From a virus: a stretch of 64,000 nucleotides of DNA. A model generated the notes under the pieces. That model was not told the origin of the DNA. It saw only the letters and a list, made by a program, of their open reading frames with translations, and did no database searches. The stretch lies in IMG/VR virus record IMGVR_UViG_3300021185_001231. The stretch is one strand, 5' to 3'. A program made the position numbers and the translations under genes. Positions within the stretch are counted from its first letter, which is position 1. Each line of letters opens with the position of its first letter. Of the stretch, positions 35,813-43,229 are shown one piece after another.

Positions 35813-35841
35813 ATTATAACACAGAAATCTGTGTTTGTCAA
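35813..35841 (-). promoter_or_regulatory. sigma70-type promoter (late TATAAATA also at 35846-35853)
   Basis: TTGACA-N17-TATAAT. Confidence 0.75.
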
Positions 35842-35848
35842 ATACTAT

Positions 35849-36646
35849 TTATAATATATTATCTACCAATATCAAATCAAATGTAGCACTACAAGAAGTT
35901 GCTTGAGCAGCCTCAACATCAATGCGGATATCTGTTTTTTCGAGAAATTGTAGGGGTACAGGATATTCCATACGGATATTCTGTCCGCCCGCTGAATTAA
36001 ATTGCCCTTTGATTCTGGGTACACCTCCGTTAAAATCTTCTCTGACAATCAAACTGTAAATCATTGCAGAGTTAGTAGATGCCTTATCAGAACCCAGAGT
36101 TAACTCTAATAGGTATGCAGTCTTACCAGCAGGGACAGTATAAACTGCCATAAGGGTTTGACCATTGCCCGCAAGAATTATCGCCATATTTACTGGGATA
36201 CCCGCCATATTAATAGTAACGTCAGATAAGTTAATAGTGTCTAACATATATGCGCGAAAGACGCGTCCAAAAGAAAGAGTAGCGGTATCACCGATTGCAA
36301 CTTCCTCTGTCTGTTCGTTGAAGTCTAAATCTAGACCTTCGATAACCACAATGTCTCCAATATTATTAAGAGAATTGACCTCTGGAGTTCCTGTTATTGG
36401 GCCTGGGTAGGTATCATTATTATCATTACCGTCCCAGATTACTCCGGAAGTAACATCACCATCGGTAGCACCGAATTTATGGACATGTTTATATCCAGTA
36501 ATTTGTCCCGCTGCAAGCGGAATGTTACTTGCTGCACCAGAAGTATTCAGTATATTACCGTCTTTATCAGCAATCATGACTACTTCATGAAGATTGTTAT
36601 TACTGGGATTAAAATGTTCTCCCCTTTTTACTGACCATTGAGCCAT
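35849..36646 (-). CDS. conserved phage protein, probably structural
   Basis: HKFG...RVFRA...QTLMAVYTVPAGKT...EKTDI pattern; late promoter at 36691-36698. Confidence 0.55.
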   Translation of the reverse strand: MAQWSVKRGEHFNPSNNNLHEVVMIADKDGNILNTSGAASNIPLAAGQITGYKHVHKFGATDGDVTSGVIWDGNDNNDTYPGPITGTPEVNSLNNIGDIVVIEGLDLDFNEQTEEVAIGDTATLSFGRVFRAYMLDTINLSDVTINMAGIPVNMAIILAGNGQTLMAVYTVPAGKTAYLLELTLGSDKASTNSAMIYSLIVREDFNGGVPRIKGQFNSAGGQNIRMEYPVPLQFLEKTDIRIDVEAAQATSCSATFDLILVDNIL

Positions 36647-36693
36647 AAAAATCTCTCCATATATATTTTATTATTGTTGAAGTTTAATACTAT

Positions 36694-38514
36694 TTATATA
36701 AGTTTGGGTTTATAAATGGTTATTAGTTCTTCCTTACCCTTAACCTTTATGTTTCCTATTTCTTGACACCTAAAACTGTCACTTAGTTGTTCCTGTGTAT
36801 AACTAGATATAATAGTCTTATGTTCTAAGTAATCTCCTCGTGCTGCCGTAGCTTCTAGTCTAGCTGCCAAGTTGACTGCATCTCCAATAACCGAATAGTC
36901 AAATCTGGATTCACTACCCATGTTACCAACAATACAATCGCCGGTGTTAATCCCAGTACCAACATTAATGTCAGGAAGACCACGGGCTTTATATATTTCT
37001 TTAAGTTCATTTGTTTTTTCTTCTATCTCAATAGCTGATTTAACTGCCATTTCAGCATGGTTTTCACAGGATAATGGCGCATTCCAAAATGCCATTATGC
37101 AGTCTCCCATATACTTGTCAATAGTTCCTCCATTAGATAATATAATTTTTGTCATAGCGTCTAAGAATTCATTTACCAACTCTACTAATCCTTCAGGGTC
37201 GTCTTTGTTCTTGTAGTGTTCACTGATAGGAGTAAATCCACATATGTCCATAAAAAGAAAGGACATCTCTTTCTTCTCTCCTCCAAGTTTTAGGAGTGAC
37301 GGATCCTTCTGAAGCATGTAGACCATGTCTGGAGATAGATAAGTTCCAAATTGTTTCTTTATCTGCTCTTTGAGTTGGAAAGTAACATAGAATCTATTAA
37401 AAGAAGAGTGCGCAAAAACTACAAAAGATGACATCACCGGATACAATACGTCCAGTAGTATAAGAGATTCCATCCAATAGTAATGACCCACAACAAACCA
37501 ACTAGACATTATTCCTAATGAACCGAGGGCGGAAAACCATGTCGGTGTTTTGTAGACTATGAGAAGGATAAGAAATGAAGACATAATGATGACTAGTATT
37601 TCTAACTGATCTGCATACCAAGGCCTTTGTATTTGAATACCGTTCACTACAGTAGATATTAAGTGTGCTTGGATATCATGAGGCAGCATAGCACCAGTAG
37701 GAGTCGCGACAGGATTGACTAATCCTCCGGCGCTCAAACCCAGTATGATTATTTTTTCATCTGGTAGAGGGTCTCCAAAGGATACTCTTTCGTAGGTGTT
37801 CCAGTAGGCTATTTGTACATTTGAGTTTGGTGTGGTGTACATAAGAGGAAGTGAACCCATTCTCACCCACTCCACTCCAGCTTCTTTTATTTTTATTGCG
37901 AGGTTGGGTTGGAACTCCCAGACACGAAGTATCTCCAAAGCAACGGAAGGATAGAGGTGATCATTAGATAATACTGCTAAAGGAGACTCCCTCACAATAC
38001 CATCTACAGAAGGGGCGACAGTAACAGTTCCGACTCCGGCGGAGTCCTTTCCCATTATAGGATTTCTTATTCCGTTGTAGGAATACAACCAGTCAGAAGG
38101 ATTTCCATTACCGAGTTTGCCGAACCCCCTAGGAGGTGCCTTATTACTCTCTAACTGATTTGTTGTTAATGAAGATAGAATGACATCCCTATTAGACATA
38201 GAAGATATAAATTTTTCATCCCCACCAAACCTATCCCTTTCAGTAAAACCCATATTGAAAACATAGGCACTATTCTCTGGAGAAGACATCAACCAGTCTG
38301 CATATATGTCTCGACTAAACGGAAACTGACCATACCTATCTAAAGCCTTCTCGTCGATATCGACAATGACTATGTTATCCGATCGTATAGGTTCTTGATA
38401 TGACTGAAGAGAATCAAAATAATTTAGTCGGAATTGTTCGACTAGTTTGGGGTCAATTACTCTTACTGTACACAATAGAAGTATTGTTATGAGAACAACT
38501 TTCCAATTATACAT
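36694..38514 (-). CDS. CHASE2-domain class III adenylate cyclase
   Basis: N-term TM; CHASE2 (IVIVDIDE...FPFSR...DG.VR...TP.G.M); 3 TM; cyclase FMDICGFT, IDKYMGD, DYSVIGDAVNLAARLE, VKGK. Confidence 0.92.
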   Translation of the reverse strand: MYNWKVVLITILLLCTVRVIDPKLVEQFRLNYFDSLQSYQEPIRSDNIVIVDIDEKALDRYGQFPFSRDIYADWLMSSPENSAYVFNMGFTERDRFGGDEKFISSMSNRDVILSSLTTNQLESNKAPPRGFGKLGNGNPSDWLYSYNGIRNPIMGKDSAGVGTVTVAPSVDGIVRESPLAVLSNDHLYPSVALEILRVWEFQPNLAIKIKEAGVEWVRMGSLPLMYTTPNSNVQIAYWNTYERVSFGDPLPDEKIIILGLSAGGLVNPVATPTGAMLPHDIQAHLISTVVNGIQIQRPWYADQLEILVIIMSSFLILLIVYKTPTWFSALGSLGIMSSWFVVGHYYWMESLILLDVLYPVMSSFVVFAHSSFNRFYVTFQLKEQIKKQFGTYLSPDMVYMLQKDPSLLKLGGEKKEMSFLFMDICGFTPISEHYKNKDDPEGLVELVNEFLDAMTKIILSNGGTIDKYMGDCIMAFWNAPLSCENHAEMAVKSAIEIEEKTNELKEIYKARGLPDINVGTGINTGDCIVGNMGSESRFDYSVIGDAVNLAARLEATAARGDYLEHKTIISSYTQEQLSDSFRCQEIGNIKVKGKEELITIYKPKLI

Positions 38515-38518
38515 TCTA

Positions 38519-38686
38519 CTACCAGTCCTTTATAATATTAACCATAATCAATATGCCACAAAGAATATTTATTCCCACTATAAAAGTTCTTATTATCGCT
38601 ATAGCATTCTCAGAATCTGGGTTATAACCATCTTCTTCATCAAATGCTCCTAGTGAATGTTTCCATATCTGCCAATACTTTTTCAT
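38519..38686 (-). CDS. small membrane protein
   Basis: W.IWKHSLG...A.IRT..V pattern; likely start MKKYW overlapping the upstream stop. Confidence 0.6.
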   Translation of the reverse strand: MKKYWQIWKHSLGAFDEEDGYNPDSENAIAIIRTFIVGINILCGILIMVNIIKDW

Positions 38687-39432
38687 TGTTGTGTTACCGT
38701 AATTGTGCAACCACCCAAAGTCACACAGTTCTGTGTTAGGGTGTAGTTCATAACACCACTACCTTGTTGTGTAAGATTTAACATGGTTGGGTCTGAACCA
38801 TCTAAGGTAACATTAGCTGTGTGAGTTCCGTACAATTGGTTAACTGTAACATCATTAGAATCATTATCTATATTAAGTGTTAGATTTTTTTCTCCACTTC
38901 CAGCTTGTGTGTAAAAGACATCATTACTATCAGAATCGACATCTATAGATAAGTTGTGATCGGGGTTAGCTGTACCAGATTTCTGGCCACCCTTGATAGT
39001 ATTACTACCACCTAGAATATCGACATAAAGTGTATGGCCAGCATCCTCATGAGTATCTCTATCACAGGATGTGTCTGACATTCCCCCAGCAAATTTACAT
39101 CCCTGACCGACGTTTACGGTGTTATTATTTCCGTTAACATCAATGTACATCTTATTTACATCAGAGCTGATCGTGTTATTCCATTGTTGCGTGGTAATAG
39201 AATTTCCGTCTCCAGATATTCCCGACCCAGACTTCAACAACTCATTTCTATTTCCTTCCTGAAGGACATCCATAGTTAGTTGGTATCCACTCATCACAGT
39301 ATCGACTTTGTTGTTGTCACCAAATTGTCTTATTTTTAAGTTAAGATTATCGCCGGACTGATTGATATATATCTCATTATCAGCGCACAATTCGATACTA
39401 AACATTATAATTATAAAGAATATTTTTTTCAT
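38683..39432 (-). CDS. curlin-like secreted beta-solenoid protein (CsgB/CsgA-like)
   Basis: signal peptide; N-x-(I/V)-x-(I/V)-x-Q-x-G-x-x-N repeats. Confidence 0.7.
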   Translation of the reverse strand: MKKIFFIIIMFSIELCADNEIYINQSGDNLNLKIRQFGDNNKVDTVMSGYQLTMDVLQEGNRNELLKSGSGISGDGNSITTQQWNNTISSDVNKMYIDVNGNNNTVNVGQGCKFAGGMSDTSCDRDTHEDAGHTLYVDILGGSNTIKGGQKSGTANPDHNLSIDVDSDSNDVFYTQAGSGEKNLTLNIDNDSNDVTVNQLYGTHTANVTLDGSDPTMLNLTQQGSGVMNYTLTQNCVTLGGCTITVTQQ

Positions 39433-39433
39433 A

Positions 39434-40576
39434 TTAATTAACCTGAGTGATGTTTATAATAACACTCTGTCCGTCACCCAAAACTATTTCAGATTCTTTC
39501 TGATTAGATATAGTTCTTATGGTTGCGTTCTGAGACATTAACAATGTAAGGCTTATTATACCGTCAATGTTTCTATAAAATTTTACAGTTCCTAGACCAG
39601 TGTCGAGTATAGTGTTATACTGAGTGTCGACATTAAACCCTAATGTAGTTCCGGTAAGATCTATTCCCGTATTTAGTTTATCTTTATCTAGTCCTGTCAT
39701 TTTATCTAGATCATCAATAATATCCAAGACATCCTGAAGAAAATCTACATCCAGATAATCAATATCTAGTTCAGTAAATTCCAGATCATCATACTCCAAG
39801 TAATCATTTTCAAGTTCATTAAACTCTAGGAAATCTACATCCAATATATTATCCGAAGAATTTTCAGAAGACAACCCCTCTTCTCTTTTTACATCTTCAA
39901 TTTCTTTCGGTTCTACTATGATGAATATATTGCTAATCATAGAAGTATTGATTCCCGACAAGACGACTGGTTTTGTCGGAGCAGTATCATAGGAGGACAC
40001 CACAGAAGCTTGATAAGGTTCTTCTAATAAAGTTGTTCCACCATTATTGCTTATCATTATCTTTCCGGAAGACTTGCCAGTCTTTTCGTCAGGCAATAAT
40101 ATTATAAGAGATCTTCCGATCTCATCGATAGTGGTGGTGAAGTCTGTCCCAAGAACTGCGATCTGTGCGGTGGGAGTAGTGAGGTTTATATTAGATTTTT
40201 TTATTCTTTTACCGCGTCCAGAAGTAAATCTTGCGGTACCTTGGGCCATGCGGATAGCCATCCTAGACTTGGATGGATCAGGATCGTAGTATGCCTCATC
40301 AATATATATTTTTGTATGTTCTATCAGTGAAAGTTCTTCCTCATCCTTAAACTGAATGAGCATTCTTCCATTACCAGTTACCGCAGTATCCAGCAATTTT
40401 ATTTCTGGGACATTTTTTTCAGAAACAGAGAGTTCCTCACCACCCTTTCGAACTAGTGAGGCAACTCCATTTCTTTCTACTATATCACCAATGGGATCGG
40501 TAGATCCCAGAGATATATTAGTTAGCGTCAGACTGAATAATATTAATATCTGAATGAGTGGTAGCAAACGTCGCAT
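39434..40576 (-). CDS. FecR-domain secreted protein with acidic repeat
   Basis: signal peptide MRRLLPLIQ...; D.AVTG.G...F.D...G.ARF...TPTAQIAVLGTDF FecR pattern; start moved to 40576. Confidence 0.8.
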   Translation of the reverse strand: MRRLLPLIQILILFSLTLTNISLGSTDPIGDIVERNGVASLVRKGGEELSVSEKNVPEIKLLDTAVTGNGRMLIQFKDEEELSLIEHTKIYIDEAYYDPDPSKSRMAIRMAQGTARFTSGRGKRIKKSNINLTTPTAQIAVLGTDFTTTIDEIGRSLIILLPDEKTGKSSGKIMISNNGGTTLLEEPYQASVVSSYDTAPTKPVVLSGINTSMISNIFIIVEPKEIEDVKREEGLSSENSSDNILDVDFLEFNELENDYLEYDDLEFTELDIDYLDVDFLQDVLDIIDDLDKMTGLDKDKLNTGIDLTGTTLGFNVDTQYNTILDTGLGTVKFYRNIDGIISLTLLMSQNATIRTISNQKESEIVLGDGQSVIINITQVN

Positions 40577-41366
40577 CGAGTATTGCATTGTTAGTAACTC
40601 CAGTTGTGGAACCAGTATTCTGACCCACGAAAACAAAGTTATAATCACCAGTCACACCAACTGTTTGTCTGTTATCCGAACCGTCTTCCATACTTGTCTG
40701 AATCCAGTTATTAGATCCAGTAACATCCCAGTTCCAAGTGGCATTGTCCGAATTGAAGAAAACATTCAATGTGTTATCCGAACCAGTAACATCTAGATCC
40801 ATATCTAAAGTATCAGCTGTACCTTCAGTAGGATCCCAAGTTCCCCAGTATGCAGTTTGACCACTATTAGTCCTAGACCAAGTGCTTCCACTAACTGTCC
40901 AAAATTGTTCTGCGTTGGACTGATTCCAGAGGGGAGTGGATATGTTATAAACATCATCCGCATTACCAGCTCTTAGAATAACTGTGTTAGTATTACCCGT
41001 TATAGCAGAATCTATAGTTAGTGTATCTGCATCATTAGCAACACCTATCTTCTGATTCCATATGTTGTAGTTACCTACAGTGAAATTGTTGATAGTCGAA
41101 CCAGTAGTTACGATAGTACCAAACATTTTGTTGTAGTCACCATCTTGTTTTAAATCTAAGTACGAGTTAGAAATTGTCATGGTCATATCAATAGATGTAC
41201 CAGTAAAATCATCTCCACCGTATTTATTACCAGCACCGATTTGTTGTATAGTCAACTCAACGTTATCACCACTCTGTGCAATAAAAATCTCATTGTCGTT
41301 AGCATCACTAGCATAGGTATTAGTCGCAGCAAGACCGAGGACCAAGTATAGTGATTTTTTATTCAT
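40518..41366 (-). CDS. curlin-like secreted beta-solenoid protein (CsgA/CsgB-like)
   Basis: signal peptide; DNEIFIAQSGDN, QIGAGN, QDGDYN, TGSDN, TGSNN repeats. Confidence 0.7.
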   Translation of the reverse strand: MNKKSLYLVLGLAATNTYASDANDNEIFIAQSGDNVELTIQQIGAGNKYGGDDFTGTSIDMTMTISNSYLDLKQDGDYNKMFGTIVTTGSTINNFTVGNYNIWNQKIGVANDADTLTIDSAITGNTNTVILRAGNADDVYNISTPLWNQSNAEQFWTVSGSTWSRTNSGQTAYWGTWDPTEGTADTLDMDLDVTGSDNTLNVFFNSDNATWNWDVTGSNNWIQTSMEDGSDNRQTVGVTGDYNFVFVGQNTGSTTGVTNNAILDATFATTHSDINIIQSDAN

Positions 41367-42201
41367 CTTCATTTGTTTCTCCTATTACCCAATAGCCCCT
41401 GTCGTGCCCTTGGTAAATTAATTCTAATACAGCTTCTTCTACGGCAGCACGTGTTGCATATGTGACACTTTCGTTGAAACCATTTCCATCTTCGAATTCT
41501 ATAAGTTTGGTATCCATATCAACAAACCTAAAGACATCATAACCACCACCAGCAGACAATATAGATTTCCTTGTCTGTACATTAAGTAATATTTCACCAG
41601 TGAGAGTCGATGTTGCCCTAAGACTTATGACAATCGAATCCCTCCTATATTGAGAACTTTTACCTATTCCTAGGTACCTAGCTCCCCTACCACCACTTTC
41701 AATGTTAGTATCATAACCTATGATACCTCCATCAATGATAATACCTGCGAATAGAAGAGGATCGAGTTTATTATCTTTACTTTTCTTCTCCCACTCCTCT
41801 CTCGCAGATCTTATAATCTGTCTCTCTCTAACAAGGTTGTCTAACCCTACTCTATCAACTACCCGAAACCAAGAACCCCCGCCCGCAGTTTTTAATGCGT
41901 CTATTACAAACGCCTCTGCTCCTTGGGTTACCGCAGTAGAAAAATCCGCAATATTATCTCGACTTTTTCTTTGACCTGTCAAGTCTTTAAAACTGTAAAC
42001 CGCAACTATAGGTCTAACCTTAGCTGCCGGAAGATTCGCAAGTTTCTCCGAGGCCGGTAAAGTCACAACCTCAGCACTTTCTCTACACTCATAAACATAT
42101 TGATTCAAAAGACCTTCTCGATCTTCACAATCTATTATGGATGGTCTGGGTATTCCAGCGCAACCCGATAGAATAATAAGAGATAATAAAATTAGTCTCA
42201 T
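41359..42201 (-). CDS. csgG: curli secretion channel lipoprotein CsgG
   Basis: lipobox LSGC; VAVYSFKDLTGQ, STAVTQG, WFRVVDR.GL.NL..ERQIIR, GGIIGYDTN..SGG.GARYLGIG. Confidence 0.95.
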   Translation of the reverse strand: MRLILLSLIILSGCAGIPRPSIIDCEDREGLLNQYVYECRESAEVVTLPASEKLANLPAAKVRPIVAVYSFKDLTGQRKSRDNIADFSTAVTQGAEAFVIDALKTAGGGSWFRVVDRVGLDNLVRERQIIRSAREEWEKKSKDNKLDPLLFAGIIIDGGIIGYDTNIESGGRGARYLGIGKSSQYRRDSIVISLRATSTLTGEILLNVQTRKSILSAGGGYDVFRFVDMDTKLIEFEDGNGFNESVTYATRAAVEEAVLELIYQGHDRGYWVIGETNEDE

Positions 42202-42671
42202 TAAAATCCACCAGCACCGATAGGAACATCCAAAGTAGTAACAGTTCCATCTTCACTGACTACCGTGATTCTTATCACGTCAGTACCATCAGCTCCACCA
42301 CCGTATATAGTTTCATAGGTGATAGAGTTTCCTTCAATCTCAAAAAAACCAGACTCCGAGGAATCTGTATTACCAAACATATTGTCTACCAATTGTTTGG
42401 CAATCTGTGCGTATATTCTACTTTCTAAATTACGCAAGAACTTTGCTTGCGTAGTATTGTTTGCATCTCTTTCAGCTTGTGCGATTGCCGATTCTATATC
42501 ATCCTTTATTTCTTCCCTACGAGATCTTTCTTGATTCTCGATAGTAAGATAATGTGAAGAAGTTCCTATACCACTAAAAGAAGGAGATTTAAACTTATGA
42601 GTAATTTGATCTGAGTAAGAGTAAGTTGCATATAGTAATAAACTAATCAGTGTTCCGGTTATTTTTTTCAT
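42201..42671 (-). CDS. csgF: curli assembly protein CsgF
   Basis: signal peptide; HKFKSPSFSG (cf. FxNPxFGG); F...LESRIYAQ.; C-terminal beta hairpin. Confidence 0.85.
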   Translation of the reverse strand: MKKITGTLISLLLYATYSYSDQITHKFKSPSFSGIGTSSHYLTIENQERSRREEIKDDIESAIAQAERDANNTTQAKFLRNLESRIYAQIAKQLVDNMFGNTDSSESGFFEIEGNSITYETIYGGGADGTDVIRITVVSEDGTVTTLDVPIGAGGF

Positions 42672-42909
42672 TCTCTTTCTCCTGAATTATCATGTCCAAT
42701 TTAGTTTTCATACGAATCAAATCATTATCCAACATTCTAACCCTGTCAATAAGTGCTATCAATGTCATATGAGATTCTGAAACTACAGGGTCAACTTCTG
42801 TCGTAACCCACTTCCAGATATAAAATATAAAGTAACCCAATCCAAATGCTGCAATAATGGGAAACCCATATTTACTTATAGCATCAGCAATAGTCAATTC
42901 TTCCATCAA
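42643..42909 (-). CDS. small TM plus coiled-coil protein (YvrJ/BhlA-like)
   Basis: YGFPII..GLGYF...LIDRVRMLDND. Confidence 0.65.
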   Translation of the reverse strand: MMEELTIADAISKYGFPIIAAFGLGYFIFYIWKWVTTEVDPVVSESHMTLIALIDRVRMLDNDLIRMKTKLDMIIQEKENEKNNRNTD

Positions 42910-43184
42910 TCCTTTCTCGCATCCTTTTGTCCGTCAGCTCGCGCAATTCTATCTACATCCGGAGTAACTCCAAATGCTTGACACATAAGAACATCGACAC
43001 GAACAAGTTCATTGTTCATAGTTTTGACACGATTGTCTAAGGATTTTGCAAACCCACGTTGGGTTTTTATGTCACTAAGAACACCATCAAGAATAAATCG
43101 TAAAGTTAGGAATACAAAGAAACCCCCAGCGAGAGCGGAGGCAATAGGAAAACCTACATCAGTTACCATTGTAAGAAAGTTCAT
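42906..43184 (-). CDS. small TM plus coiled-coil protein (paralog of 42643-42909)
   Basis: VGFPIA..GGFF...LDNRVKTMNNE. Confidence 0.65.
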   Translation of the reverse strand: MNFLTMVTDVGFPIASALAGGFFVFLTLRFILDGVLSDIKTQRGFAKSLDNRVKTMNNELVRVDVLMCQAFGVTPDVDRIARADGQKDARKD

Positions 43185-43221
43185 TCTAGTAGTATCGTAT
43201 ATGTCAAATAAATTATACTAC

Positions 43222-43229
43222 TATTTATA
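43222..43229 (-). promoter_or_regulatory. T4-type late promoter heading the curli cassette
   Basis: TATAAATA about 40 nt upstream of ORF 43184. Confidence 0.65.

Follow-up and report, generated by a model that had tools for sequence, protein, structure and literature searches.

A curli-type secretion cassette with a FecR-domain protein and a CHASE2 adenylate cyclase in a T4-like marine phage

Curli-type (type VIII) secretion genes have been described in marine phages. Zaragoza-Solas et al. 2020 reported csgF and csgG with their neighbours and proposed a role in 'sibling capture' (PMC7029224). A full account of the module came from Wittmers et al. 2022, who found it, complete with its two curlins, FecR and cyclase, in SAR11 podophages and myophages and noted that it is globally abundant, expressed and absent from canonical bacterial operons (PMC9599517). 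Buchholz et al. 2022 proposed a pore which controls the timing of lysis (PMC9004378). Here, we examine a 64,000-nucleotide stretch of viral DNA (IMG/VR record IMGVR_UViG_3300021185_001231, hereafter the window) in which positions 36694-43184 of the minus strand hold a nine-gene cassette with curli-type export proteins, two curlin-like proteins, a FecR-domain protein and a CHASE2 adenylate cyclase. The cassette was published in 2022, and the window adds one more member of an established phage group to those known to carry it. In our judgement the leading account, whose probability falls a little short of even, is that an HTVC008M-like T4-type phage carries here the pelagimyophage 'viral type VIII secretion (curli) module' and expresses it late, from a single transcription unit.

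Few accessory gene sets are as widespread as this module in phages of the ocean's most abundant bacteria. Hosts without any curli genes would gain a new envelope structure and probably a source of cyclic AMP (cAMP), and the function of the module bears on marine aggregation, lysis and carbon flow. In the papers on the viral system, the small proteins are called 'histidine kinase', FecR is taken as an iron regulator and CHASE2 is not mentioned; the evidence presented here disagrees. What the present analysis adds is FecR as a candidate CHASE2 partner, small proteins which are not kinases, a bacterial chromosomal copy, the finding of no phage-encoded cAMP receiver in the four phage records searched, and a late-promoter core enriched solely at the head of the unit.

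DNA and protein searches group the window with T4-like marine myophages near Pelagibacter phage HTVC008M and Methylophilales phage Melnitz. In the nearest record, an IMG/VR contig of 88 kb, the cassette proteins are 96-99% identical. The GenBank annotation of both phages already contains the same gene run (HTVC008M gp011-gp019, Melnitz _97-_104), ordered as in the window: two small proteins, CsgF, CsgG, curlin, FecR, curlin and cyclase. Both the gene set and the order of the module published for SAR11-type phages are therefore found here, with 51% (CsgG) and 44% (cyclase) identity to HTVC008M. The window differs by an extra small transmembrane (TM) gene ahead of the cyclase, which is present in some relatives only. 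An earlier note on this DNA had named only csgF/csgG pairs as reported from T4-like marine myophages, which is outdated since the full module was published in 2022 (PMC9599517). Its proposal that the locus is more than a pore is partly supported with respect to anatomy, as channel, curlin-fold proteins, FecR-domain protein and cyclase lie in one unit, but is not new.

The nine open reading frames (ORFs) lie where that note had placed them, and their ends overlap or nearly abut (they overlap or leave gaps of 1-4 nucleotides). Pfam supports the assignments of CsgF, CsgG, FecR, CHASE2 and the cyclase. The run starts with TM1 (42906-43184), a phage-specific bitopic membrane protein of 92 residues with an N-terminal GFPI-type TM segment and a charged helical C-terminus, followed by its 88-residue paralog TM2 (42643-42909). 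The export genes come next. The CsgF homolog (42201-42671; Pfam PF10614, 3.4e-11, above the cut-off) has a signal peptide and a conserved N-terminal F-K-S-P-S-F-S-G motif, and CsgG (41359-42201; PF03783, 3e-47; NCBIfam CsgG, 4.2e-49) is an outer-membrane lipoprotein with the lipobox LSGC; both are members of the curli, or type VIII, secretion families. Downstream lie the curlin-like Cur1 (40518-41372; 284 residues, signal peptide, Q-x-G-x-x-N repeats), the secreted FecR-domain protein (39434-40588; 384 residues; PF04773, 2.8e-10; phrog_37870, 1.8e-61) and the curlin-like Cur2 (38683-39432; 249 residues, signal peptide, C-terminal Cys pair). The small TM gene (38519-38710; phrog_1679, 5.8e-15), with a probable start MKKYWQ at 38686, precedes the 606-residue TM-CHASE2-3TM-class III adenylate cyclase (36694-38514; CHASE2 PF05226, 5.2e-29; Guanylate_cyc PF00211, 3.2e-21). 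Signal peptides in CsgF, Cur1, Cur2 and FecR, as well as the CsgG lipobox, were read from the translations. In agreement with the earlier note, no match to the CsgE, CsgC or CsgD families was obtained with Pfam and NCBIfam among the nine cassette proteins, to which this search was confined. Alphaproteobacterial curli systems likewise lack CsgE, CsgC and CsgD (PMC9599517).

The conservation of this arrangement was examined with a CsgG scan of IMG/VR contigs, which returned 80 viral loci with 56-96% CsgG identity. TM1, TM2 and CsgF stand ahead of CsgG in 79/79 sufficiently long viral contigs, while FecR is found downstream of CsgG in 61/61 and the cyclase in 28/28. FecR is flanked on both sides by a curlin-like ORF in all related contigs. 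Furthermore, the overlap of Cur1 with the FecR start (~70 nucleotides in the window, 40-70 nucleotides overall) is kept in all relatives. In the versions from three metagenome-assembled genome (MAG) bins (L085, L088, L091), inversion of the cyclase or of the TM pair has left the genes adjacent. Because the cassette genes stay adjacent despite inversion, their coupling is better evidenced than by shared order alone, and the linkage of FecR and cyclase to csgFG, which the earlier note had proposed to check by synteny, is borne out through rearrangements too. These observations support a single conserved unit which is inherited together and comprises an export channel, two curlin-type β-solenoid proteins, a FecR-domain protein of the periplasm and a CHASE2 adenylate cyclase that looks intact.

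Full cassettes are also present in bins labelled Verrucomicrobiota, Bacteroidota, Legionellales, Pirellulales, Polynucleobacter and Rhodobacteraceae (L085-L092, L095). We rejected them as evidence of bacterial carriage: L085, with its DNA polymerase, ligase and clamp loader, belongs to a T4-like phage, and the phage-only TM1/TM2 occur in most of the remainder. They appear to be phage contigs sorted into bacterial bins; several come from freshwater, which would extend the module beyond marine pelagiphages.

A bacterial counterpart is found in two Caulobacteraceae MAGs (L093, L094), where csgF, csgG, two curlin genes, FecR and a CHASE2 cyclase form a 6-kb block (L094:6990-13085). Pfam confirmed CsgG and CHASE2 in this genome. 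The block shares the six core genes and, apart from the place of FecR, their order with the window, at 50% (CsgG), 41% (cyclase), 34% (FecR) and 36% (CsgF) identity. In contrast to the phage version, both curlins precede FecR, TM1/TM2 are missing, and the flanks are not of phage type but encode housekeeping functions (methylmalonyl-CoA mutase, acyl-CoA dehydrogenase, amidohydrolase, TetR, DsbA, phosphoesterase). Other alphaproteobacterial curli operons also have csgF-csgG next to curlin-repeat genes without csgC, csgD or csgE, and their CsgG shares 41-52% identity with the cassette-type protein in L094, but FecR, CHASE2 cyclase and TM1/TM2 are absent within 9 kb in 7/7 genomes. In a quick tree, cassette-type CsgG forms its own clade apart from plain curli CsgG (Shimodaira-Hasegawa-like approximate likelihood ratio test, SH-aLRT, 99). 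The Caulobacteraceae pair is a long branch inside the cassette clade, a placement compatible with transfer in either direction.

The usual separation of the two halves in bacteria fits a different explanation, namely that two independent modules travel together. Curli would then serve aggregation ('sibling capture') or superinfection exclusion, the FecR/CHASE2 cyclase pair would reprogramme host metabolism via cAMP, and no signal would pass between them. Some phage versions (L085) encode the cyclase on the other strand, which also agrees with such loose association. Against it stand the co-occurrence in 61/61 and 28/28 contigs, the position of FecR, wedged between the curlin genes with a start overlapping Cur1 in all relatives, the adjacency which survives inversions, and the same block in a bacterial chromosome. 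We regard two unconnected modules as unlikely, although they deserve some weight, and prefer the single conserved unit.

Transcription as one unit is suggested by promoter placement. As claimed in the earlier note, an exact T4-type late promoter box, TATAAATA, is located at 43222-43229 on the minus strand, 37 nucleotides before the first-gene ATG at 43184. With 12 occurrences in the window versus 7.8 expected, the count of this box is not significant alone. Across distinct relatives, the core ATAAATA occurs at most 80 nucleotides upstream of TM1 in 24 of 46, often directly behind a terminator hairpin. At the same distance it is found upstream of TM2, CsgF, CsgG, Cur1 and FecR in 0 of 44-48, of Cur2 in 1/50 and of the cyclase in 3/30, against 2.7% of background windows. 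Enrichment of the late-promoter core is thus confined to the head of the unit. No convincing terminator was seen within the cassette, and the next exact box (36691-36698, minus strand), which lies over the cyclase stop codon, stands at the head of the gene that follows and delimits the unit on its 3′ side. RNA-library contigs from at least three studies cover parts of most cassette genes at 93-99% identity; they attest to presence in RNA libraries and are not a transcript map, and the several bins left uncovered are uninformative on expression. Metatranscript matches to the module have been reported (PMC9599517).

The earlier note had expected β-solenoids for both curlin-like proteins, and models of Cur1 and Cur2 agree with this expectation. 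The two proteins are homologous to each other (hhalign probability 99.35, E 6.4e-21). A profile of Cur2 relatives matches CsgA structures from Pontibacter (8c50, 7.8e-5) and E. coli (8enq, 0.003), and Cur2 itself matches the NCBIfam CsgA family at 1.1e-4. AlphaFold (AF2) models have a predicted local distance difference test score (pLDDT) of 81 and a predicted template modelling score (pTM) of 0.78 for Cur2, and 74 and 0.76 for Cur1. They consist of stacked paired strands of 6-9 residues in a strand-turn-strand arrangement. In an all-against-all structural search with VIA-align, the best fold match of Cur2 is CsgA 8c50 (Z 19.4, root mean square deviation 8.7 Å over 200 residues). For Cur1 the same structure, at Z 15.5 versus 16.5 for the top match, is tied with the top rows, the other leaders being SufD-type β-helices; the fold matches of Cur1 are two-strand β-helices. 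Foldseek against the PDB gave non-significant β-helix matches only for both models. The identity of Cur1 and Cur2 as curlin-like is based on the profile and fold evidence because Pfam gives no match. On the predicted models, both have the curlin β-solenoid fold and would be secreted curlin-repeat subunits of CsgA type.

Two short motifs were noticed in these proteins. D-N-E-I directly follows the signal peptide in both curlins, and a C-terminal I-x-I-x-Q strand is common to Cur1, Cur2 and FecR, with I-T-I-x-Q-R in distant FecR-family members. No profile similarity of FecR to the curlins was detected, and the idea of the FecR C-terminal domain as a curlin-like repeat was dropped, as hhalign found no similarity (E 0.066 over 15 columns). 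We also considered Cur1 as hypervariable or missing in near-identical relatives; this was rejected since L003 and L005 carry the same 284-residue gene. At 41325-41389, contigs of three runs have 123 other letters instead of 63 nucleotides at the CsgG end and Cur1 start. This variant agrees with L003, in which CsgG has 295 residues, another C-terminal tail and no overlap with Cur1.

The FecR-domain protein is composed of a signal peptide, the FecR domain with a β extension, a highly conserved acidic linker and a C-terminal domain which ends in the I-x-I-x-Q strand. Mean column identity among phages is 68%, and the conserved start is ATG 40588, which corrects GTG 40648. Pfam detects no domain besides PF04773 in this protein, which lacks an anti-sigma part, and no solved FecR structure was found via its sequence profile. 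The published reading as a ferric-citrate-type regulator, in a system whose channel imports cofactors or siderophores for iron or nutrient regulation (PMC9599517), has the Pfam domain name in its favour. The E. coli FecR-type regulator, however, joins a cytoplasmic anti-sigma domain, one TM segment and a periplasmic domain and has FecI and FecA as partners, whereas the cassette protein has only a signal peptide and FecR domain, with neither an N-terminal nor a cytoplasmic anti-sigma part, and no FecI- or FecA-like gene lies in the cassette. In addition, FecR relatives stand beside CHASE2 cyclases or are themselves giant secreted proteins, and none in the PDB is found by sequence. The protein is a FecR-domain protein, not a FecR regulator, and we hold iron or nutrient regulation to be very improbable.

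The FecR family has 13,112 representatives at E <= 0.001; for the genome scan the narrower alignment A5 was used, the broad alignment A4 being too divergent. The closest cellular relatives are alphaproteobacterial, and some are located beside CHASE2 cyclases (L103, L115, L117, L120, L123). CHASE2 occurs in 129 of 301 alphaproteobacterial genomes. Within 30 alphaproteobacterial CHASE2 loci, nine have a FecR-family ORF 133-2777 nucleotides from the cyclase, versus 0/15 control regions (Fisher p = 0.02).

Published systems show the same pairing. In a Burkholderia biofilm operon a LysM/FecR gene stands beside a CHASE2 histidine kinase, and this pairing recurs in Pseudomonas aeruginosa (PMC5192318). 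In Sinorhizobium meliloti the cAMP regulator Clr, supplied by the CHASE2 cyclases CyaD1, CyaD2 and CyaK, has a periplasmic FecR-domain protein among its targets; CyaD1 without CHASE2 is constitutively active (PMC5498481). The CHASE2 cyclases of S. meliloti sense an external protein via the outer-membrane protein NsrA (PMC13001267). As in the cassette, such bacterial pairs (Burkholderia 'BiofilmReg'; S. meliloti CyaD1/D2/K with SMc02177 and NsrA) encode a secreted FecR-domain protein next to an inner-membrane CHASE2 sensor, and the output of alphaproteobacterial pairs is usually a class III cyclase. They differ in having no curli genes, and some FecR partners carry LysM or span several thousand residues. 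Because FecR-family genes adjoin CHASE2 cyclases in 9/30 loci against 0/15, and because of these published pairings, the best reading by analogy is that FecR acts here as a periplasmic CHASE2 partner rather than an iron regulator. We also observed three alphaproteobacterial loci (L098:1570-12531, L099:9710-17095, L101:9524-17389) in which a FecR-family domain akin to that of the phage protein heads open frames of ~2,400-3,600 residues, probably encoding large surface proteins that are secreted.

The putative partner has the layout and motifs of a CHASE2 class III adenylate cyclase: one TM segment, CHASE2, three TM segments and then the catalytic domain. The latter is best aligned with P. aeruginosa CyaB (3r5g, E 3e-34) and retains both Asp motifs for metal binding, the Lys that selects adenine and the Asn/Arg pair. 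Since these catalytic motifs are kept, an active adenylate cyclase is expected from the sequence.

Amyloid formation, cAMP synthesis and any relay are inferences from these components. The amyloid coat or plug, the relay of its assembly state and the roles in lysis timing or superinfection sensing put forward in the earlier note go beyond what the present analysis supports. Late in infection, the CsgG/CsgF channel would be placed in the host outer membrane, where curlin-like subunits would be exported and could polymerise at the cell surface. By analogy with bacterial FecR-family genes beside CHASE2 sensors, the FecR-domain protein would be the periplasmic partner of CHASE2 and may couple the envelope or surface state to cytoplasmic cAMP synthesis. 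A bolder version, which we consider improbable, joins all parts in one trans-envelope sensing machine. FecR would monitor the CsgG/CsgF channel or the surface fibre, for instance for contact with cells or with a further phage or for the end of export, and switch the cyclase. The cAMP would act on a non-canonical receiver, perhaps the phage-specific TM1 and TM2 or a host protein that lacks a cNMP-binding (cyclic nucleotide-binding) domain, and would set lysis timing or exclude superinfection. If true, a phage would for the first time be seen to encode an outside-in second-messenger pathway based on an amyloid secretion system.

Several findings weigh against the cassette being a late-transcribed curli module which works as one unit. 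Neither Cur1 nor Cur2 matches any Pfam family at E <= 0.1, and no CsgE was found among the nine cassette proteins. The two halves are usually separate in bacteria: csgG is present in 0/30 alphaproteobacterial CHASE2 loci, and 7/7 other alphaproteobacterial csgFG loci are without FecR or CHASE2. The RNA contigs are assembled, so that DNA carry-over is possible. No cNMP-binding domain was found in HTVC008M, Melnitz and two related IMG/VR records. Finally, Melnitz-infected cells showed no clumping in the work of Buchholz et al. (PMC9004378).

The missing CsgE gate and the Melnitz cultures without clumping (PMC9004378) would also suit a lysis or permeability device (Buchholz et al. 2022; Zaragoza-Solas et al. 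2020). Here, CsgG/CsgF would be a gated outer-membrane pore, secretin- or pinholin-like, which times lysis or admits macromolecules, with holin- or antiholin-like TM1/TM2 and with the solenoids as accessory parts instead of fibres. Late expression, as predicted from the promoter, and the confinement of small bitopic TM paralogs to phage versions, with their absence from the bacterial copy, are in line with this proposal. An outer-membrane pore, however, is unable to depolarise the inner membrane, two curlin-fold secreted proteins are universally retained, and TM1/TM2 match no holin or spanin family. A device of this kind is, in our view, doubtful, with a low probability, and we retain the secretion module as the preferred reading.

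The small proteins themselves are paralogs which both match phrog_18771 (TM1 2.5e-25, TM2 4.5e-30). They have no Pfam or NCBIfam family at E <= 0.1, and their relatives in the Atlas are viral only and fall into clusters without a Pfam family. Conservation of both is high and extends to the charged C-terminus; the bacterial copy lacks them. TM1/TM2 have been labelled histidine kinases by an unstated method (PMC9599517). We rejected a role as sensor histidine kinases: the proteins have 88-92 residues, neither HisKA/DHp nor HATPase_c, no Pfam or NCBIfam match and exclusively viral relatives.

Downstream of the unit, a gene of 265 residues (35849-36646, minus strand; phrog_8198, of no assigned function) is situated between two exact TATAAATA boxes at 36691-36698 and 35846-35853. 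One RNA-library contig joins 35852 to 36691 and skips the 838 nucleotides between. As the contig break falls exactly at the repeated promoter box, some relatives appear to be without this gene, which suggests its promoter-flanked gain or loss. Just downstream of the late genes, at 35813-35841 on the minus strand, a perfect sigma-70-type promoter (TTGACA, 17 nucleotides, TG, TATAAT) is probably the early promoter for the next block.

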